NCBI GenBank assembly: GCA_951406725.2
Contig: OX597817.1
Coordinates: 1,550,001-1,614,000 of the forward strand
Source of the DNA: Octopus vulgaris
Taxonomy: Eukaryota
DNA: 64,000 bases
Direction: 5' to 3'
Positions 5,444-56,301 of the stretch are shown piece after piece (positions within the stretch are counted from its first letter, which is position 1; every line of letters starts with the position of its first letter). The notes below the pieces were generated by a model. That model saw only the letters and a program-made list of their open reading frames with translations. It had not been told where the DNA came from and made no database searches. A program made the translations under genes and the position numbers.

Positions 5444-7583
5444 GGTATTATCTACTCGGGTGTATCGGGTATCAATAGAAGAGAGAACTATTAACAGCAA
5501 ATACACGGTACAAAATAACTTTTCTGAAAAAATTTCGTCTTTAATGCATTTGACTTCTTTGTGAGGATATAAAGTTCGTGTTCCGGGGAGATGGATTCCT
5601 TTAGAGGTCTATGAAAAGAGTTTTGCAAGTCATCGAGGCCCATGTATAATGGGATATATCGAACGGTAAGTCTTGAAATAATTATCTCCAAAAAATGTTT
5701 AAATGCTTTCATTTCGGCCGGGAAAACACTTCTGAAAAGAAATGAATATTTTCACATTGAACGAAGCAGCACCATTTCCTATTCAGAGGTAAATTTTAGG
5801 AATACGGAACGAAAATCTGATTATTATTTGAGTTTTCAGAAGGGAAGGAAACAAAACTGTCTTTCTCTTATCCCCACCCTCACTATCTCTCCCTCCCTCT
5901 TCGTGTTATACACATGCACACACACAGACACATACAGAGGCACACACACATAAATTTCTGTGTGCATGTGTGTGTATGTGCGCGTGTATGTTGATGTAAT
6001 TTATTTTATGAATATGCTGAAAATTACTATTTGTGCTCATATGAAAGCCAGGAATATTTTTCCGTAATGAATTTGTGTTGCAAGATTCCGAAACAGATAT
6101 TGTCGTATTTCGGGATGGTTCATATTTTTTTTTAATAATTTTTCTGTCAAATAAACACACGCAGTATATATTCATTCTGCGCTCGTTATTACTGTTTTTA
6201 TTTTGAAATAAGAACAGTAATAAACGGGTGAAGAACGAATATATAGTAAGGTTGCTTATTTGGCAAAAAAAAAAAAAAAAAAAAGAAAAGGGTAAAATGA
6301 GCATCCAGAAATACAACAATAATTTTTTTTTTTTTCCATTTTCAGGAAAAATATTGCTGTTTATCCCATAGGCTCTTGCAGAATGATGCGATGAATAAGG
6401 CGGGTGCGTTGTTTGAATTACTGAACGAGATAACTACCAAATAAAAATATGAGCGTGGGTTGAATTTGAGCGTTGCAACTCTGGGACGCGTGGTTGGACA
6501 AGGTGTTAAGAACGATATTGGGTAGATTGGTGGAAAGATGTCATGAAACAAGGTGTTTGAAGGGGAAAAAACTGTGCATCTGTGAATTGTTTTGTTTTTA
6601 ACTGTTGGTGAATGAATCTATACTAATCAGTCGAATAAGACATTTCCCATTTATTTTCGCATGTTTGTAGGGATTGTTTCAGACTCATCTGATACATGTA
6701 AATACTGCTGTGCGTAGTATTTAAGTTTTGTAGAGGCTCAACAACTGATCTGATTAGACAAGTCTGTTCTTTATGAGGCATTTTGTATAATGTTTAAACA
6801 CCACAAGAGATCTTCAGCAATTGTGACTCTTAGTAATTTGACGGCTCTGTGTGTTATTCATTGAGTGCTGTTCGTTGCGTGTAGTTCATTGTGTATTTGT
6901 TAACGTTTGTGCTAAAATGTGTAGTTTATAAATAAAGCGGTTTTATATACGACTGTTTCCTTGATATATGTAGCAAATATATCCTTAAAGCTGGAATGTT
7001 CTGCCTTCATTGAAGGATTTTTTATGGCAGTAGTTCGTGGAAATTATGGGTGTGTAGCCAGCATGAAGATGTGATGTGTGTAGGGCTGTGTATGGTGCAT
7101 TATTGTATATTAGGTGTTTTATTGGGAAATTATTCTCAGTCTGATCGGTGTCTTTTTAGGCTGTGTACAAAGCAGTAAGCTCTAGTATGTATTGATAATA
7201 TACATTTTTGTATATCATACTCCACAAACTTGTTATTTCTTATTATATTCCTCTAAGTCCTAATACATTAGATTACGTACATTTCTCTTTGTTTCAAATT
7301 TATTGTCAACTTGAACACACGTGCTCAGGATATTGTAGCTCTACAATTATTAAAATCATATTTTGCTCCACGCTTATGCTTAGTAACCCCCGTTTTGCTT
7401 GAAAGTGTCGGCGTAATGCCCAACGGAACGCACAACTCAATCGCTCATCTCTGTGAATATATTTCATTTAATGAGATCACTGGCATTGAGGTGATCTCTT
7501 GGTTTATAATATTAACTGGGTTCACGGCTTTTTACTACTTAATTTATTTCGTTATCTCTTGTAGTTTAGATATGGATATTGGT

Positions 7584-11820: not shown

Positions 11821-11992
11821 CATATATACGACGGGATTCTTTCAGTTTCCGTCTACCAAATCCACTCACAAGGCTTTGATCGGCCCGAGGCTATAATATA
11901 AGACACTTGCCCAAGGTGCCACGCAGTGGGACTGAACCCGGAACCTTGTGTTTATTAAGCAATCTACTTACCACACAGCCACTCCTACGCCT
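11546..11992 (-). mobile_element. SINE family 1 copy
   Basis: Same head, body, internal microsatellite and tail. Confidence 0.9.
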
Positions 11993-12557
11993 TTTATATA
12001 TATAAACATGAGAAGGTGTATAGATTAATTCTTAGAGTGTTGGGGCTTCATGATCATTACTTCCAGGGTTCAATTTTCGGACAGGGCAACATTTGTACTC
12101 TTGGGCAAGGCATTTCCTTTCAAGTTATTCTAATCTATTTGGAGTAGCAGGGATTAATCCTGCGACCGACTGACATCCTGTTCAATGGGACTCTGTATTT
12201 TCAGTTACCTAAATGCCTTAGAAACCCGGATAATCTCCGGCTTTATGTACCCGTAGACTTCGAGGGGAGACTTAGGATTTCATGAAGTTGGGAGAGCCCA
12301 GTTACTGTTGTTAATAGTGAGGTTTTTAGATGAAAGCGCTCTTTGGTTAATTTACAAATTCAGGCTCATAGTTCTTAGAGGGAGAGGGGTAGAGGGGAGA
12401 CAGGGGTTTGGATGACATCAACCAAGCATACGGGCAGAGTTGAGACGCATTCGTTCATAGATGAACGTACCTCAAAAGAGGCGTAACATACAGAGAGCTA
12501 GCGTGTGGATCCCACGAGGATGGGGAGACAAACATACAGACAGGTAAATAGACAGAC

Positions 12558-16874: not shown

Positions 16875-16877
16875 ATA

Positions 16878-17086
16878 GTTAATACAAACAAGAAAACACA
16901 AAGAGAAAACACAACAACGCGAGGACGTGGAAGAAATATAGTATTATTGGACGCTCAGGAAGGAAGGAAAGAAGGAGGGTTTAACGTTTCGAGCGGAGCC
17001 CTTCGTCGGAAACATAGGAGAAGGAAAGATCCCGAGAAGGGAAGACAGAGGAAAAGAAATCGCCAACGGTACACACGAGGTCACAT
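16878..17086 (-). mobile_element. About 205-bp Penelope-type terminal repeat / retrozyme-like element, copy A
   Basis: Homologous to 23875-24081, 51326-51494 and 51556-51757; abuts (TA)n; hammerhead-like motif at 16979-17013. Confidence 0.75.
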
Positions 17087-23874: not shown

Positions 23875-24079
23875 ATGTGACCTTGTGTGTACCGTTGGCG
23901 ATTTTTTTTTCCTCTGTCTTCCCTTCTCGGGATCTTTCCTTCTCCTATGTTTCCGACGAAGAGCTCCGCTCGAAACGTTAAACCCTCCGTCTTCCCTTCT
24001 TTCCTGAGCGTCCAATAAAACTATACTTGTTCCACGTCCTCGCGTTGTTGTGTTTTTTTGTGTTTTCTTGTTTGGATTA

Positions 24080-24081
<2 letters not shown>
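23875..24081 (+). mobile_element. About 205-bp Penelope-type terminal repeat / retrozyme-like element, copy B
   Basis: Same family as copy A; AATAAA downstream of the motif; T-rich 3' end running into (TA)n. Confidence 0.75.
23949..23983 (+). ncRNA. Minimal type I hammerhead ribozyme-like motif (U4C, extra A after core, palindromic stem III)
   Basis: GTTT-CCGACGA-A-GAGC-tcc-GCTC-GAAA-CG-TT-AAAC; stem I GTTT/AAAC, stem II GAGC/GCTC. Confidence 0.65.
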
Positions 24082-24124
<43 letters not shown>

Positions 24125-29889: not shown

Positions 29890-30622
29890 AAGGATGATGA
29901 TGACGACGACGATGATATATACCGTTTTGATAACAGACGAAAGGTTGGTAAACAATCTAACGAAATTAAGTAAATGTCATGAAAATTTCTCCATCGACGA
30001 ATAGGAATTTGACATGGTGACACATATACACATCCATTTACATGCGAAGTCTCACACACACACACAGAGGTGAGAATCTTGATATATACATACAAATACA
30101 TTTACACCTTTATAAATATGGCTATATATTTTGCATTAAGCGTGTGTGAATGTGTGTGCGTACGTGCGAGTATATGAGTGAATGCGCGCGTGTGCACGCG
30201 TATGTAAGACACGAAAAGAGAACAAATCATATTTATCACAGGCTATACTTGTAAATCTTTATTTCTCTCTCTTTCTTCTCCCTCTCTCCCTCTCTCTCTA
30301 CCTCTCCCTATACCTCCCAGGAAGAAAGCAGGTGAAATCACTGTAATCAGACTTCAAGAGGGATGGGCTCCGCTAGGTCTAAATGCACGAGTCAATGTGA
30401 ACGTCATGACGGCGCTCATACGACTCCGTGAAGAGTTCAGGGCACACGGAAAATACATGGCTACACAGTTACATATATGCATGCAAACATACAGACAGAC
30501 ACACACGATACACACAAACAAACAAACATGTACATAAGTATATGCGTATATAAAAGATATCTATATAAATATATTCACATACACGCACACACACACAAAT
30601 ATGTGATTAATGAGAGACGTAA

Positions 30623-31561
30623 AATGGAGGATACGAGAATCTTTATTGAACACCACAATAGTTTCGACCCATCTAGAATCGATCTCTTACACAACTGGTT
30701 TAGGTGTATCCCTCGGTATAGATGTGTTTCCACGGGTGATTTCAAGAGGTGTCTCGTTAAAATAAACTCTTTTTCACAAGATTTCTTCTAGGTCTCCGTA
30801 TATAGAAATACCAAATTAAGGGATACAGCTTCATTCTTATAGAAGATCCATAAGAAAGATCAGATATAAAAAGAAAGAAATACACAATACAACGAAAAAG
30901 TATTAGATATAACCGTTAGTAGATATGGATGTACAAACGTCCATACATACGTGATCGGGTGTACGTACACTCGCTCGTACAAACGCACACGTGTATACAA
31001 GCAGACATACACGCGTGCTCTGCCGCAGATAGACAGGTACGCAGAATTAAGTTGTTATTAATAAAGTCATTGGCTATTAGTGGCTAGTGATATGATACCG
31101 CTTGGTGAAGAGTCACAGATTCTGTAAATCAAGGCTTTATTGAGATGGATCGGGCTAATAGTGGCGTAGTAATTCTCGATATGAAGTTGTAAGAATTTTG
31201 TGGTTTTGTTATTTTCTAGTTGCTTAAACCATCCAGTTACCTCTTGGGCATCTGACCACAGGGTTAATCTACGTTTAGACTTAAGGGTGGGCACTATATC
31301 TTTTTGTATCTGATCTTTCTTATGGATCTTCTATAATAATGAAGCTGTATCCCTTAATTTGTCATTTTTATATACGAAGACCTAGAAGAAATCTTGCGAA
31401 ATAGTTTATTTTAAAGAGATACCTCTTGAAATCACTCGAAGAGACACATCTACACCGAAGGATACATTTAAACCTGTAATATAGTACCCCACCCACGAGG
31501 GATCGATGCTAGATGGGCCGAAGCAATTGTAGTGATCAATAAAGATTCGTGTATCTTCCAT
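30623..31561. mobile_element. Penelope-like relic: about 255-bp inverted repeats (30623-30875 / 31298-31561) enclosing an RT fragment
   Basis: Arms share gaagatccataagaaagatcagat and gatttcaagagg; minus-strand 31067-31294 peptide WSDAQEVTGWFKQLE...FLQLHIENYYATIS resembles PLE RT motif A region. Confidence 0.75.
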
Positions 31562-31720
31562 CTTCCATCAACAAATAGACAAACTACCAGGTCTATACCA
31601 TACACTTTATTAACTAATATGCGTGTATATATATATACTTCTAATATAGGATAACATTTTTCAGAAAGTTTCATCGAGTGGCCGGTATATTGAAATACCT
31701 TTTAAGGTCTAAGTTATAAA

Positions 31721-31895
31721 CAATTATAAATAGGGGCAAAAGAAAAATTTCTATGCCAAAATGCTGATAAATAGTCTTTAAATCGTCAAACACGATGTGC
31801 ATTTATAGTGATGTATATTGTATGTGGTGTTTGATGATTTTAAAGTCTATTATCAGCATATTAGTATAGACATTTTTCTTTTGCCCTTATAATTG
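31721..31895. repeat. Imperfect inverted repeat (about 70-bp arms)
   Basis: gggcaaaagaaaaat...tgctgataa...atcgtcaaacac / gtgtttgatgat...ttatcagca...atttttcttttgccc. Confidence 0.8.
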
Positions 31896-34922: not shown

Positions 34923-35318
34923 ATCTTTTACTTGTTTCAGGCATTTGACTGCGGCCATGCTGGAGCACCGCCTTTAATCGAGCAACTCGACCCCGGGACT
35001 TATATCTTTTGTAAGCCCAGTACTTATTCTACCGGTCTCTTTTGCCGAACCGCTAAGTTACGGGGACGTATACACACCACCATCGGTTGTTAAGCGATGT
35101 TGGGTGGACAAACACAAATACATAAACACACACACACACATATATATACATATATACGACGGGCTTCTTTCAGTTTCCGTCTACCAAATCCACTCACAAG
35201 GCTTTGGTCGGCCCGAAGCTATAGTAGAAGACACTTGCCCAAGGTTCCACGCAGTGGGACTGAACTCGGAACCATGTGGTTGGCAAACAAGCTACTTACC
35301 ACACAGCCACTCCTGCGC
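34923..35318 (-). mobile_element. SINE family 1 copy (near intact)
   Basis: Full head-to-tail match to other copies. Confidence 0.9.
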
Positions 35319-35439
35319 TGTATGTATGTATGTATGTATGTATGTATGTATGTATGTATGTATGTATGTATGTATGTATGTGTGTGTGTATGTATGTATA
35401 TCTATATGTATGTATGTGTGTATGTATGTATGTCTTCTA

Positions 35440-36223: not shown

Positions 36224-36372
36224 CACACATGTATTCGACGGGGTTCTTTCAGTTTCCATCTACCAAATCCACTCACAAGATTCTGGTCGGACCACGGTGC
36301 CACGCAGTGAGACAGAACCTGGAACCATGTGGTTGGTAAACAAGCTACTTACCACGCAACCACTCCTGCGCC
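35960..36372 (-). mobile_element. SINE family 1 copy with internal deletion
   Basis: Matches the 34923 copy but lacks part of the CORE-like segment. Confidence 0.85.
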
Positions 36373-36475
36373 ATATATATAAGGTTGTTCATAACTTTTT
36401 CCGTCTATAGAGAAATGGCTAAAATTTTCTCTGTTTATAATTATACCATGTGTTATTAATATATATATATATATA

Positions 36476-36748
36476 TATAAGTAACAAAGATGTACAGGTG
36501 TCCGTTCATTACGGCCGTTTCGAGTGGCTCCATTTAAATTATTAATGAAGACATTACATCAATCTGAAAAAAAAAACCGTCCTCATCAGACGAACGCATA
36601 AACTTCAAACAAAAAGGATGCACCATTTATGCGTTCACCTGACGAGAATGGCTTCTTTCAAATTGATGTAATGCTTTCGTCAATCAATTAAATGGAGCCA
36701 CTTGAAGCGGCCGCAATGAATTGACACTTGTACATCTTTGTTACTTAT
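36476..36748. repeat. Imperfect palindrome (inverted Penelope-type terminal repeats)
   Basis: ataagtaacaaagatgtaca... / ...tgtacatctttgttacttat; arms about 125 bp, spacer about 22 bp. Confidence 0.85.
36503..36596 (-). ncRNA. Type I hammerhead ribozyme-like motif with extended stem II
   Basis: Minus strand: cgttcgt-CTGATGA-(61 nt)-GAAA-cggccg-TA-atgaacg; 7-bp stem I. Confidence 0.7.
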
Positions 36749-37731
36749 TTATATTCTGTTCATTTAACTTGTAATCTGCACTTCGGAAATACTATAGAAA
36801 GTACTTTTATATAAAGTACATGTCTGAATTACCAATAGCGGATATCTTCACTTAGCTGGGTTGCGTTGTCTACACACACGATAGGAATGTTGGGTACAAA
36901 TACCCACTACACGGAGTCTTGATATTGAATATTTAAATAATATTGTTGGGGTGCACCGAACTAGCAAGGCGCCTCAATTTAAGCACCTAATCCAACAGAA
37001 TCTTAATTATATATGTATGCGCGCGCATATATATATACACATACACATACACTACATCAGTATATATACATATATAAATACATGCATACATAAGTATGTG
37101 TATGCACCCACACTTACACACACACACATATTAATTAATTAATGAGAAGGGAAAAGGGATTACGTAATCAACTTCATTAGCATAGAGTAGGGAACCTGGA
37201 GATGAGGGTTTGGTCAACATCCTAGAATCTATTAAAACGAAATGAAGTTTATTTCGGAAAGCAATTACACGCGCGCGCTCGCGCATTAAAGGTGAAACTT
37301 TTATAATGTCAGACATATTTTCGACATTTCAGAAGAAACAAGAATTGACATATTCACGTTTTTTTTTTGTTTTCTTTTTATTAAGAAGTAGTAGAAACTA
37401 GTCACCTCCACAATAAACACTCCTAGTGTGACGAAACGGGAAATTATAACAGTCAGTACTAATCAGAAGAAAAACAACGAGTGAATAAACAGAATAGTCT
37501 TTTGTGTGTTACTTCTTTTTTTTATATGGGTAATATGACTTCTCCAAGATGTAATTGTAGACACATACATACATGCACGCACACACACACATACACATGT
37601 ATGCATGCGCATATGCTTACATACATGCATATATACATATATACATACATGCATACATACATGCATATATGCATGCATACATACATACATATATATATGT
37701 ACATACATACATACATACATACATACATACA

Positions 37732-45920: not shown

Positions 45921-47255
45921 GCATTTATAGCTTAAAGAAGTGGCTAAAATCAAGCTTTGTCCTCTTGAACTATTATTTTCCTATTATGAATTTATTATAG
46001 TCATACTATTATTATTATTATTAATATTATTAGTTATATTCATACTGTTTTTCCTATACTGTAATGAAATGTGTAACATGAATTATAAATATACCAAACT
46101 TTCCAGTCTTTGTTTTGTTACGTACACACATAAGCACACATGAACTTTAGTTGTTCGGAGAATGGTCCTCTCACCCTCTCTTTCTCTCTTCCTCTCTTTA
46201 CACACACACACACACACACATACACACACACGCACACACATACACACACACATTACGTTGGTAGGGTAAAATTCAAGGTGAGTCTTCTTTTTCCATCTTA
46301 TTCCAGTATTACAATCCAGTATGTTGATGTTCTCGTTGTTGCTTGACGTAAGGTACATCTTAGAGTCGAAAATTCTGAAAATATAGTTTGCAGAGTTATT
46401 ATATAACAAAGAAGGAAGTTGGAAACATTTTTCGTATGATTTATTCACTATTACACATGTTTCATTTGCTAATAGGAATTATAAAGTTTTACTCATGAGA
46501 TAAACGTGTAAAGAATTTCCTATTAAAATTCTTCAGACAGAGAAACAAATAACTATTTGTTTTTTGTTTTTTTTTAAAATTTTTTTTTACAATGACCAAT
46601 TCTCACTTGCTGGGAGGGCATGTCAAAGTTATGGACACTCTCTTACCCTATCAGAGTTATAACAAAGAAAATAACATTGCCTTGGAAATATAAATCATCC
46701 CTTATTACTATCTGTGAACCCTTTAGCCACCACTGCAACGCATGTAATAATTACCATTAGTGAAGTAAAATATATCTTCATGCATCGCACATAACGCAGG
46801 CTGACTGGCCTCCGAAATTGTTATAGAACCTTCTGGTCCATTTTCAACTGAGTTTTTACCAACTCTGTAGAATTGTCCAATCCATAACTTTTTAAATGAC
46901 GATGACTCTGTAAGAGATTGGCTTGCTGAAAAGACTCCAGTTTGTTTTTACACTTTGCACTGTTTACACACAATATGACTTTTAATATCAGCCTCATAAA
47001 CACACAGTCGTTACCACGTTTAAACCATCTCGTTTGACTCCAACCCAATATCCAGCCCAACCTCCTTTTTATCACCTTCAAACAATATGCACAGGACTTA
47101 GCTATCTTTCTCTACTGTTTTCTAATGTTTTTACAAACGTGCTGCAGTGTGTCATAACTCACAAAAAAGCGCCCCAATCTCACTGTGTCAAGTACTTTAC
47201 ATCTGTGAAATAAAAACAATCGTTAGAACTATCCGAAACATTGAGTATCTCTCTC

Positions 47256-51280: not shown

Positions 51281-51325
51281 GTGTGTATGTTTATATATAT
51301 ATATATATATATAAATATATATATA

Positions 51326-51757
51326 GTTAATCCAAACAAGAAAGCACAAAAAAACACAACAACGCGAGGACGTGGAACAAATATAGTATTATTGGACGCT
51401 CAGGAAAGAAGGAAAGAAGGAGGGTTTAACGTTTCGACCGGAGCTCTTCGTCGGAAACATAGGAGAAGGAAAGATCCAGAGAAGGGAAGACAGATGTGAA
51501 TATATATGTATGTCTATATGTGTACATATATTTATATATATGTATATATTTGTACCGCGTGTGTACCGTTGGCGATTTTTTTTCCTCTGTCTTCCCTTCT
51601 CTGGATCTTTCCTTTTCCTATGTTTCAGACGAAGAGCTCCGCTCGAAACGTAAAACCCTCCTTCTTCCCTTCCTTCCTGGGCGTCCAATAATACTATATT
51701 TGTTCCACCTCCTCGTGTTGTTGTGATTTCTCTTTGTGTTTTCGTGTTTGGATTAAC
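51326..51757. mobile_element. Head-to-head inverted pair (copies C and D) of the same element
   Basis: 51326-51494 is the reverse complement of about 51586-51757; (TA)n on both outer sides. Confidence 0.8.
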
Positions 51758-51758
51758 T

Positions 51759-51818
<60 letters not shown>

Positions 51819-52440: not shown

Positions 52441-52484
52441 GTAACCCTCTGTTCCTTTCACTTGTATTCTAATTCATTAGGACT

Positions 52485-53960
52485 ATGATCAAGATTGGTT
52501 GTGTAAATGCGCGTGGCTTGGGGTCCCCTTGGAAACAAGGGTACCTCTTAAATGACATAAAGTCACATAAGTTAGAAATCATAGCCATAAGTGAGACCAG
52601 ACTCCACAATCCGCGGGCCCTAAAGACCATGTTTGGCGGACAGTTCAACATTTATTTTTCCCCCTGTCTCCCGAGAATGGGCGGTAGTGGCACCGCGGTA
52701 CTTTTTCGTAAGAGTCTGGATCTCAAAGTAAGGACAATATTCGTAGACCCGGGGGGTAGACTGGTCGTCCTGGATGTCGACGGCAGCAATGGGTGCACTT
52801 TTCGACTCGTATCAGTCTACGCACCGCCCTTAACAGGTCGGGCGGATTTCTTTCAACGTCTAGAAGTATTCTTGGGAACGTCTCGTCCTTTACTCTTAGT
52901 GGGGGATTGGAATGCTACCTTGGACACGCATGTAGACTACGTGGGTAGAGATAGGAATAGACGGAGATGCAAATGCCTCAGAGACCTGCTCAGACGCTTT
53001 CAACTGTCTGACAGGTTCCGACTAGACCACCCGAATGCGCCAACGTGGACATGGAGCAACCGCATCGGGTCGTCGAGATCGTATCTAGATAGGATACTGT
53101 GTAGGACAGTAGACAAAGATAGCATAGGATGTCCACAATTCCACATAGTCAGCTACACGGATCACAAACTTGTGACATGTACGCTAGACTTAGGTAAGAC
53201 ACTTAGGTAGGGTCCCGGATACTGGAAACTAAACGCGTCTTTCCCATCGAGACAGGTTTTCAGAGACCGGATTAGCACACTAGTAAAGAGGGCTTTGACG
53301 GGAGCCATCATCAACAACAAATGGTGGTTTGCCCTCAAGAGAGCAGTAAAAGCAGAAGCGATTAGGTACAGCAAAGCACTAGCCATAGACAGAAATAGAA
53401 TTGAGAGTGAGCTGGTTAAGAAGCTAGAAGAGGCAATTAGAAGCGGCATCGCATCTGACGTTTTGGCGGCGAGGTTGGCCCTCGACCAACACTTCAACGC
53501 CAAACACGAAGGATGTGCTGTCAGAGCTAGGATGCGTGCTCTAAGGAACGAAGGTGTTGGAGCCGCGAGAGAGGCCCGGGTGGCAGAGGCGCAACAGGGC
53601 AACAAAGCCACCATTCGGTCCCTGGTAGATGAACAGGGGCGCGAATTGATCGAGCCAAGTAAAATGTGTGAGGCCTTTCAGCAGCATTTTGCCCGACTGT
53701 TCGGGACGAGTGGAGGGCAAGAACGTAGGGTGGACTTCAGTGCCTACCTACATAGCCTACCACGACTCTCGACAAGAAAGGCAGGGTGCTGCGAAGGTGC
53801 CATCACGGCGGAGGAAGTGCAGGAAGCGATGGCAGAATGCTCGAGGGACAAATCACCAGGTTTGGATGGTCTACCCTACGAGCTTTACAATTGTATGCCA
53901 GACTTGTTTGGAGATCTCTTGGCGGCGGTGTACTGCAACTGGCAGCAAAACGGGAGCATT
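52485..53960 (+). pseudogene. LINE ORF2 N-terminal half (APE endonuclease, linker, start of RT region); in-frame TAG at 53208-53210
   Basis: Motifs NARGL, ISET, VGDWN, YLDRIL, TDHKLV; the same frame continues past the stop (GPGYWKLN) into the 53295 ORF with KSPGLDGLPYELY. Confidence 0.93.
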
Positions 53961-54329
53961 TGAGATCCAGACTCTTACGAAAAAGTACCGCGGTGCCACT
54001 ACCGCCCATTCTCGGGAGACAGGGGGAAAAATAAATGTTGAACTGTCCGCCAAACATGGTCTTTAAGGCCCGCGGATTGTGGAGTCTGGTCTCACTTATG
54101 GCTATGATTTCTAACTTATGTGACTTTATGTCATTTAAGAGGTCCCCTTGTTTCCAAGGGGACCCCAAGCCACGCGCATTTACACAACCAATCTTGATCA
54201 TAGTCCTAATGAATTAGAATACAAGTGAAAGGAACAGAGGGTTACTTACTGCTCGAAAGTTTTTGCTTTCTCCTCTGCTGGTTTGTCCTCGAGGAGATCC
54301 CAGTACAGTTTCTTTGTGAGATATTTTTG
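53959..54329 (-). repeat. Inverted duplicate of 52357-52727 inside the LINE
   Basis: 371-bp reverse-complement match with 3 substitutions found by eye. Confidence 0.97.
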
Positions 54330-54342
54330 AGCCGATATTTTT

Positions 54343-56301
54343 GGTTTTGTGAGCCGAGGAGCCGTAACACTGCTGAAGAAAGATCTAAACAAGGGAAATG
54401 TAATAGATAACTTTAGGCCTATCACTCTGCTTAATGCAGACTTGAAAATTTTGGCCAAGGTGCTAGCCAAGAGGTTGGCGCTTGTCATCGAGAAACTGGT
54501 CGACAAGGCGCAAACATGCGCCGTGCCGGGCCGGAGCATCCATGACAACCTCCACCTGATGCGCTACATCATAGACAGGGTAGTTAACGAACATGGCATG
54601 GGTGGGGCGCTGATCAATTTGGATCAATCGAAAGCTTTCGATAGGGTAGACCATCGATACTTGGAGACGGTCCTCAGAGCGGTAGGCTTCGGTCCCGTCT
54701 TCCGCGGCTGGATAGCCGCTTTGTACAGAGGCATCCGTTCGGTAATTCGCGTGAATGGACATCTATCGAGACCCTTCGACATCGCACGTTCGGTCCGTCA
54801 GGGATGCCCCCTCTCGTCGCTTCTATACGTATTGACTCTCGAGCCATTATTGCGGAAGCTGGCAACTTTGAGGGGCATCCCGCGAGAACTGGGATGCGGG
54901 ACGAGCGTGTCTGCATACGCGGACGACGTCACCGTCATAGTGTCTAGCCACGAGCACATCGAGCAGGTCGGCGAGACACTGAAAAACTACGAAGCGGTGA
55001 CAGGAGCGAAAATCAACCGGGAAAAGTCAGTGGGCTTGCGACTAGGCACCTGGAGAAGCAAGCCCATGCCGTCCACCAGCGCCTCCGTCGTGGGACGCTG
55101 GACCGACGGCCCGGTTGAGTTGCTCGGGGTCTGGTTTGGTCCGGACCTCCAAGTGGAGAAGAACTGGAACGAGATAACGAGTAGGGTGGTCACTCTCGCC
55201 CGGCAATGGGCCGAGAGGAAACTGTCCCTAAAAGGTCGGGCGGAGGTGGCGAACACGTACATCGCGTCCGTCATCTACTACCGCCTGACCGTCGTACCAT
55301 GTCCCAACCCTACCATCACCAAACTACAACGCATTCTCTTTCGCTTCTTGTGGAAAGGATGCGTCCCGATGGTCAGGCGATCCATTTGCTGTCAACACCC
55401 GTTAAAAGGAGGGCTGGGCATGCCGTGGTTGATGATGCGCAGACACGCGCTGAGACTGCGACATCTCTGGCTCTATGTAGACGACGGTGAACAGATGTGG
55501 TTGCCGTTTGTGAGGCACGCTTTCCCGCAGCTCGTCTCCATGACCGAACTGCAGTCGTGGATCAAAAAGAGGCCGAAGAAGGGCGAATGGCACCGCGAGT
55601 GTCGCGTTGCTCTCAAGCAACTCTGCCGTCCCGGGTCGACCTTGAGTGACTTCATCACAACCAAAGCATTCTATAGGGGATTAGTGGAGGGGAGGTACGA
55701 CGACGAGCTCGGGGCGAACCTGGACGTCGACGAGGAGTACCTGACCCGCCTGTTCAGGACGACTTTCGGGCCAGGGCCCATGGACAACTTCCAGAGATCC
55801 CTGGTCTGGCAGTGCTACCGAGAAGCGCTACCCGTTCGGGATAAGCTCTACAGACACGGCTCGAGAAACACGGGGCCGACCTGCCCGAGATGCGGTCAGA
55901 GCGACGAAACCGTTCTGCACGCACTCGTTCAGTGTCCAACAATTTCCGACCTGTGGGCTTATGTCGAACAACTGCTGTCACGTGTGGGACGAGTCGGTTT
56001 ATCAGCTGAGTCTATCGTCAATATTGTCACGCCTCCTTCCTTCAAACGGGAAGGAAGAGCTATTTTCATCATCCTTGTGGCTATGGCGAAAGAATGTATC
56101 TGGTGGACGCGTCTGAAAGGATTGGAGACAAACACTTTCCTCTCTGGTCAATCTCTCATCAACTTCTTCAAGTACCACTTGAAAAGGAAAGTGAGAGTAG
56201 AGAGGCAAGTTTTGTCTAGCGAATGTTTTAAAAAAAGATGGGTGAATGTAGCAAGAATGGCACGTATGAATGACGAAGCCACCTTGAGCATAATCCTATG
56301 A
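54343..56301 (+). pseudogene. LINE ORF2 C-terminal half (reverse transcriptase and C-terminal zinc knuckle)
   Basis: FRPITLLNADLKILAKVL, LDQSKAFDRV, QGCPLS, YADD, CPRCGQSDETVLHALVQC; open for 650 aa. Confidence 0.95.

Follow-up and report, generated by a model that had tools for sequence, protein, structure and literature searches.

The palindrome at positions 36480–36754 of the window (the whole stretch of 64,000 nucleotides that we analyzed) quite likely represents one old and truncated insertion of a high-copy Penelope-like element (PLE) family, with an inverted copy laid down at insertion and both copies since decayed. Each arm carries a type I hammerhead motif. In the right arm, the core pair 15.1-16.1 is G-C. 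Most likely, this G-C core arose by chance at this one locus, as decay rather than as a new type of ribozyme, because it is rare among related copies and adjoins other damage. The parts of the unit are listed in Table 1.

Table 1. Parts of the insertion, in window coordinates
Feature	Positions	Strand	Description and basis
(TA)n microsatellite	36459–36479		Adjoins the left end; probable target site; from sequence
Left arm (124 nt)	36480–36603	-	pLTR-like terminal repeat with the hammerhead, as an inverted, 5'-truncated copy; from self-comparison and family depth
Left type I hammerhead	36503–36596	-	Core canonical, stem I of 7 bp, loop III palindromic, two mismatches side by side in stem II
Unpaired centre (21 nt)	36604–36624		Lies between the head-to-head copies; from self-comparison
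Right arm (130 nt)	36625–36754	+	Direct copy of the terminal repeat; from self-comparison and family contigs
Right type I hammerhead, decayed	36632–36722	+	CTGACGA, long stem II (36646–36703), G15.1, C16.1, A17, C2.1·A1.1 mismatch
One-sided extension of family sequence	36755–37000	+	Element body or long tail; from bridging contigs; right boundary approximate
TA/CA-rich simple repeat	37004–37060		Right end of the unit; from sequence

The first-pass annotation had placed a palindrome with a hammerhead motif in each arm here, and the palindrome is real. The inverted repeat pairs 36471–36572 with 36653–36754 (102 nt, 85% identity), and an inner inverted pair links 36570–36602 to 36626–36658. When the arms are aligned globally, 108 of 130 positions are identical, and the remainder are 18 transitions and 4 transversions (17% divergence; the arms are 83–85% alike). 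The alignment of the palindrome to itself by BLAST scores 220 bits, as compared to at most 31 bits in 100 shuffles. The predicted minimum free energy of the palindrome strand is −145.4 kcal/mol (z = −21.4), and none of 200 shuffled sequences did as well.

An artefact of assembly was ruled out as the source of the palindrome by contigs from two public runs. A contig from run X1 (record 1) matches 36508–36744 with no differences, and a contig from X2 (record 9) matches 36492–36744 with one other letter and one gap. (X1 may derive from the assembly's source sample; X2 is from another sample.) A third contig, from run X5 of organism B (record 17), differs from 36499–36718 by 8 other letters and 3 gaps; it probably comes from the same locus in that organism. 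The centre of the palindrome varies, with a 7-letter insertion behind 36599 in an X2 contig and a 2-letter gap at 36611 in an X5 contig. No contig in any of the four runs that we used covers 36375–36479. The surroundings are AT-rich, animal-type DNA of cephalopod-like appearance (the GC content of the window is mostly 33–41%) with many microsatellites and much retroelement debris. Close to the left end of the element is a short interspersed repeat (36230–36385), which has several diverged copies elsewhere in the window (for example 35153–35327 and 11825–12000; 72–84%).

To learn the state of the family, we read it through contigs of 4 of the 24 public runs (X1, X2, X5, and X6), placed on 36375–36990 at 80% likeness. 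(Our description of the family draws on the rows listed, which are 40 of 134 for variants, 15 of 43 for joints, 24 of 940 for loose ends, and 32 of 4,317 for pieces.) In the four runs, 947, 1,181, 815, and 1,214 contigs were placed, and over half of them are less than 90% alike, which indicates that the family is dispersed and diverged, in organisms A, B, and C alike. By BLAST, the element has no further match below E = 0.1 in the rest of the window. As the first-pass annotation had proposed, this is another hammerhead family: it is high-copy, its core is canonical, and it has no BLAST similarity to the window's other hammerhead-like repeats. Rfam gave no matches at the gathering score over the whole window. 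At E values of up to 10, there were 22 weak matches to generic hairpins within 36300–37050, and none to a hammerhead. Among the papers listed by a literature search on hammerheads of octopus Penelope elements, none concerns this family, judging from titles and the first lines of abstracts. By this search, the family is apparently undescribed, though its kind is known, and the copy at our locus has decayed.

The contigs also show that the palindrome is not the unit that is repeated. In X1, the depth is 303 at the centre (36606–36626) as compared to up to about 21,000 in the arms, and it stays high to about 36960. Furthermore, contigs bridge the end of the right arm (36639–36888 and 36701–36953 in X1; 36639–36888 in X6). 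Family sequence continues past this arm for about 250 nt, to at least 36990, which was overlooked in the first-pass annotation; family contigs were placed for the extension only up to that position. Other contigs end at 36754 and go on into (TA)n (16, 13, and 19 of them in X1, X5, and X6). Joints of 36521 to 36701–36709 are also seen in a few contigs, as would be expected of palindromes with a shorter centre and no CUGANGA core; the sides of these joints are just 27–30 letters long, which makes this weak evidence for such palindromes.

The unit is asymmetric. It runs from (TA)n, which the left end abuts, through the inverted 124-nt copy, the 21-nt centre, the direct 130-nt copy, and the extension of about 250 nt to a TA-rich repeat. 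The extension has no second copy within the window. As compared to several family contigs, about 7 nt are missing from the locus copy at 36954, many joints fall at 36955, and a short hairpin comes after this site (around 36968–36987). The region 36954–36990 may be the distal end of the family.

This arrangement resembles a PLE insertion. PLE insertions are described as having an inverted, 5'-truncated copy that adjoins the upstream pLTR and a one-sided tail of 30–40 bp, and their microsatellite targets hide target duplications (Craig et al. 2021, PMC8557442). Head-to-head is the usual arrangement of the inverted copy (Arkhipova et al. 2013, PMC3846280). PLE hammerheads have a palindromic helix III and require dimers, and pairs of them occur on opposite strands, 100–700 bp apart (Cervera and de la Pena 2014, PMC4209133). 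The tail has been tied to two internal starts of reverse transcription, and in vitro, insertion does not require the ribozyme (Frangieh et al., PMC11167929). At our locus, there is a terminal repeat whose family majority has a type I hammerhead with a palindromic helix III near the 3' end; the predicted cut site is about 39 nt before the family end point at 36754. An inverted, 5'-truncated copy is adjacent to it, head-to-head. The copies are dispersed, their targets are probably AT-rich or microsatellite DNA, and their loose ends run into (TA)n. A one-sided extension is present as well, but it is about 250 nt long instead of 30–40 nt.

We searched the unit for coding remnants, and none of its 10 short stop-free fragments has a match in Pfam. 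(These fragments encode 22–42 amino acids, so this is a weak test for a truncated copy.) There is no downstream pLTR or second direct copy in the window. Since no RT-GIY-YIG sequence is linked to the family, we infer that it is a PLE family from its architecture.

If so, the insertion would have formed as follows. An RT-GIY-YIG protein that is encoded elsewhere would have nicked TA-rich DNA and reverse-transcribed the family's RNA, and the inverted 5'-truncated copy would have been made from the same template during the same event. In active members of the family, two ribozymes in tandem would be able to cleave as a dimer by means of their palindromic loop III. The changes A15.1>G and U16.1>C would be two of the many neutral transitions in the right arm, perhaps aided by repair within the 8-bp palindrome or by inheritance of a minority C16.1.

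This layout also occurs in a second, younger family of the window. Its four copies (in 51286–51798, 23913–24082, and 16877–17049) are 91–96% alike to the one at 51325–51500 and carry a minimal type I hammerhead whose core is CCGACGA (U4C) in three copies and CAGACGA in one. Each of the four copies ends in (TA)n, and the two at 51286–51798 are head-to-head.

The hammerhead of the left arm reads on the minus strand as CTGATGA (36589–36583) and GAAA-CGGCCG-TA (36521–36510, with GAAA at 36521–36518, U16.1 at 36511, and A17 at 36510). This canonical core and its stem I of 7 bp can be read directly in the sequence, as had been noted. The arm had also been called intact, which does not hold: its stem II pairs are GC, GU, A·C, C·A, GC, GC, UG, UA, UG, and UG, so two adjacent mismatches follow the first two pairs. 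By the canonical criteria of PMC3088659, the core and the core-adjacent pairs are present in the left arm, and the defect lies in stem II.

In the right arm, on the plus strand, we find CTGACGA (36639–36645) and GAAG-CGGCCG-CA (36704–36715), with G15.1 at 36707, C16.1 at 36714, and A17 at 36715. The first-pass annotation was correct that the 15.1-16.1 pair is G-C here and that the palindrome of stem III is kept. It described the long stem II as well-paired, and 9 of its 10 pairs do form, but the pairing is only fair: the stem opens with a G·U and has A·C at the third position. It also missed that the pair at the cleavage site is mismatched (C2.1·A1.1, 36638/36716). Position 2.1 is T in the left arm and in the family's loose ends upstream of the core, so the C in the right arm is an uncompensated change, and of the same kind (T>C) as C16.1. 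As compared to the canonical features in PMC3088659 (A15, U16, and paired 1.1-2.1), the right arm has G15.1, C16.1, and the C2.1·A1.1 mismatch. In a scan of the window for hammerheads, the right arm scored 16 and the maxima of 20 shuffles were up to 15, which is weak by itself. Overall, the palindrome and the core motifs stand as first described, but the intactness of the left arm and the quality of right-arm stem II do not.

The earlier reading of the G-C pair as a compensated change, with the suggestion of aligning genomic homologues to see if it recurs, can be judged from the contigs. Position 15.1 (36707) is A in 96.8, 95.9, 97.0, and 98.5% of the depth in X1, X2, X5, and X6 (84, 97, 79, and 104 contigs), and 16.1 (36714) is T in 83.2, 85.7, 92.2, and 87.9%. 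(Contig depth is not equal to copy number.) The majority core of the family is canonical (GAAA-CGGCCG-TA). Letters other than A at 15.1 amount to 1.5–4.1% of family depth with the locus itself included, so a G-C subfamily can account for at most about 1.5–4% of it. For comparison, five other sites that are private to the locus copy have shares of 2.6–10%, and the share at 15.1 is no larger. At 16.1, letters other than T make up 8–17% of the depth, which is above most other private sites; this share pools unnamed letters irrespective of the letter at 15.1, and clipping in the alignment, which favours the query's letter, may inflate it. A minority lineage with C16.1 may exist. The family does have the hammerhead core, and the G-C pair is largely a one-off. 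The proposal of a separate hammerhead family survives, and so, as a prediction, does that of a fold-back transcript; that of a recurrent compensated core is not supported, given its rarity and the uncompensated mismatch at the cleavage site.

Published mutagenesis, like the folding costs given below, speaks against cleavage by the right arm. Changes to A15.1 lower hammerhead activity more than 100-fold (PMC4075628). Mutants at 15.1 or 16.1 lose at least 10-fold, and such motifs were set aside as cryptic if found in repeats (PMC3088659). A natural U15.1-A16.1 swap cleaves weakly (PMC3088659), which shows that swaps of this pair are not always dead, and C16.1 has been targeted or rescued with inosine at 15.1 (PMC8879150). 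We did not find G15.1-C16.1 in the main text of PMC3088659, or any measured activity for it in the literature searched, including text passages of PMC9901934. By analogy, the G-C core of the right arm might retain some residual cleavage. Outside the family, we scanned viral contigs for the G-C motif, and none of the 120 listed loci (of about 210 estimated in total) has both a stem I of at least 4 pairs and a stem II of at least 3. A metagenome scan for the core with the canonical loop motif gave 10 loci, which lie in prokaryote-like coding DNA with a GC content of 0.45–0.72; none is similar to the element by BLAST. In both scans, the matches look like the work of chance.

We considered several other explanations. 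The right arm could be one copy of a minor subfamily with a functional G15.1-C16.1 core, whose members cleave as homodimers via their own palindromic loop. Both changes preserve the pair and the palindrome, and in a crude simulation (9–18 transitions spread over 130 nt), both sides of one chosen pair changed in just 0.4–1.8% of trials. The non-A depth at 15.1 (338, 161, 41, and 212 in the four runs) is also higher than the depth of the locus's own contigs (36.8 in X1 and 15.4 in X2), and the variable 16.1 would fit too. On the other hand, when any of 21 pairs counts, both sides changed in 9–33% of trials. The shares at 15.1 are no higher than at other private sites, the left arm, which likely came from the same template, is canonical, and the right arm has its mismatch at the cleavage site. 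Moreover, the published rescue of C16.1 uses inosine rather than G, and none of the 120 viral loci listed has both stems. We consider this subfamily very unlikely. The same goes for its strongest form, a small lineage (a few percent of copies at most) with a working hammerhead that cleaves after GCA and, owing to its changed palindrome, forms dimers only with its own kind. Another possibility is that the palindrome has been kept by selection as a hairpin RNA, which either yields small RNAs directed against the family or is a substrate for editing. The strong hairpin predicted on both strands and the close palindromic copy in organism B, which is probably the same locus, would be expected from this. 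But the arms are 17% diverged, the G·U-tolerated changes have no strand bias, and unrelated families in the window form similar fold-backs, so selection on the hairpin seems highly improbable. (A-to-I editing as the source of the changes was dropped, because A>G and T>C changes both occur in the right arm, and there is no strand bias.)

The other two alternatives concern the kind of element. It could be a non-autonomous short retroelement (retrozyme-like or SINE-like, of about 370 nt or more) that is mobilised by PLEs, so that the locus is a monomer with an inverted piece. We found no coding remnant in the unit, the extension is about the size of a retrozyme monomer (150–450 bp, PMC7229834), and a preprint derives animal retrozymes from PLEs (10.64898/2026.07.22.740005). 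However, the head-to-tail repeat that defines retrozymes is absent from the locus and from the window, and many family contigs stop at 36754 in (TA)n. This alternative is unlikely, and the story of insertion and decay would be identical under it. The palindrome could instead be a MITE or fold-back DNA transposon, with the hammerheads in its terminal inverted repeats by chance; it is palindromic, about 280 bp long, and has TA-rich flanks. This is largely refuted and has hardly any chance of being right, as family sequence runs through the right "end" in the bridging contigs and the depth of the centre is far under that of the arms. Overall, we favor the decayed PLE insertion.

The two arms of this insertion seem to have decayed separately. 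Among the variant rows listed, the right arm has a letter unlike that of the left arm and unlike the family's at 36679, 36681, 36707, 36714, and 36728; the same holds for the left arm, as compared to the right arm and to the family, at 36522, 36538, 36540, and 36581. At one place (36525/36700), both arms have the same letter although the family majority is another, which is expected if both came from one template. The 18 transitions between the arms result in G·U on the plus strand in 7 cases and on the minus strand in 11 (p = 0.48), so neither strand's hairpin appears to be favoured.

An unrelated inverted pair in the window (30621–30874 and 31299–31564; 82% alike and 424 nt apart) has hammerhead-like 3' halves that face outward. 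One copy has GAAA and the other has GAAG-CAATTG-TA, with an uncompensated A15.1>G at 31520, and the 5' core is decayed in both. This pair is not related to the element, yet it likewise has A15.1>G in one copy.

On each strand of the locus, there is only one sense ribozyme, and its antisense arm comes first. A read-through RNA is therefore predicted to zip into a hairpin instead of cleaving. In the folding model, constraining the hammerhead within the palindrome costs 74.6 kcal/mol on the plus strand and 85.0 kcal/mol on the minus strand. Even for a lone arm, the hammerhead fold costs 8–10 kcal/mol. These costs predict that ribozyme cleavage from this locus would be negligible. The first-pass annotation had suggested that a fold-back would compete with the ribozyme, and the model agrees: the hairpin is predicted to be 75–85 kcal/mol better than the ribozyme fold.

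The closest known systems are the insertion units of EN+ PLEs (PMC3846280, PMC8557442). As described there, these units have a head-to-head, inverted, 5'-truncated copy beside a direct terminal repeat, a hammerhead near the 3' end of the repeat, a one-sided extension, and a microsatellite target without a clear target duplication, all as at our locus. The locus differs from them in lacking an ORF and, within the window, a second direct pLTR, and in its extension of about 250 nt instead of 30–40 nt. We liken it by architecture to the EN+ clades (Penelope/Poseidon, Neptune, Nematis, and Hydra) rather than placing it among them. The PLE hammerheads described in PMC4209133 share the type I topology, an enlarged helix II, and the palindromic 15.2-16.2/loop 3, and they too are dispersed as single or opposite-strand motifs with high sequence heterogeneity. 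At our locus, the helix II region is 58–61 nt, which is longer than their helices of 6–8 bp; also, G10.1·U11.1 appears to be the family state here, and by Rfam we matched the family to none of the described ones. Animal non-LTR retrozymes, as described by Cervera and de la Pena (2020, PMC7229834), are similar in being non-coding, low-GC repeats with a type I hammerhead. But they are arranged head-to-tail in tandem, and our locus is not. Among the natural core variants in the main text of Perreault et al. (2011, PMC3088659), the 15.1-16.1 swap is known as the weakly active U-A, and G15.1-C16.1 at our locus is not the family state.

These results would add one more hammerhead-bearing, probably Penelope-like, family, which is common to at least three organism labels and whose helix II is unusually long. 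Its extension of about 250 nt might mark an internal start of reverse transcription that is more distant than the described tails of 30–40 nt imply. There is also a caution: before a change that looks "compensated" in one copy of a repeat is taken as covariation, data on the family are required. If the G-C core were nevertheless recurrent and active, it would extend the cleavage rules of hammerheads with a natural base where inosine was used. And a working G15.1-C16.1 lineage would show orthogonal core pairing in a natural ribozyme, and the rule that A15.1-U16.1 is nearly invariant would fall.

The window contains several other repeats. A single hammerhead-like motif on the minus strand (46440–46548) has CTGAAGA, a long AT-rich stem II, and GAAA-CATG; its scan score of 14 is within the range of the shuffles. 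There are short imperfect palindromes at 6098–6321 (71%) and 31721–31895 (77%), with no hammerhead motif and no other copy found in the window. Finally, a LINE-type element at 52473–56301 has pieces of an endonuclease-like ORF (by eye), a duplicated 5' part on the minus strand (53803–54213), and a reverse transcriptase (54331–56298) whose frame of 656 amino acids matches RVT_1 (E = 1e-33) and zf-RVT.
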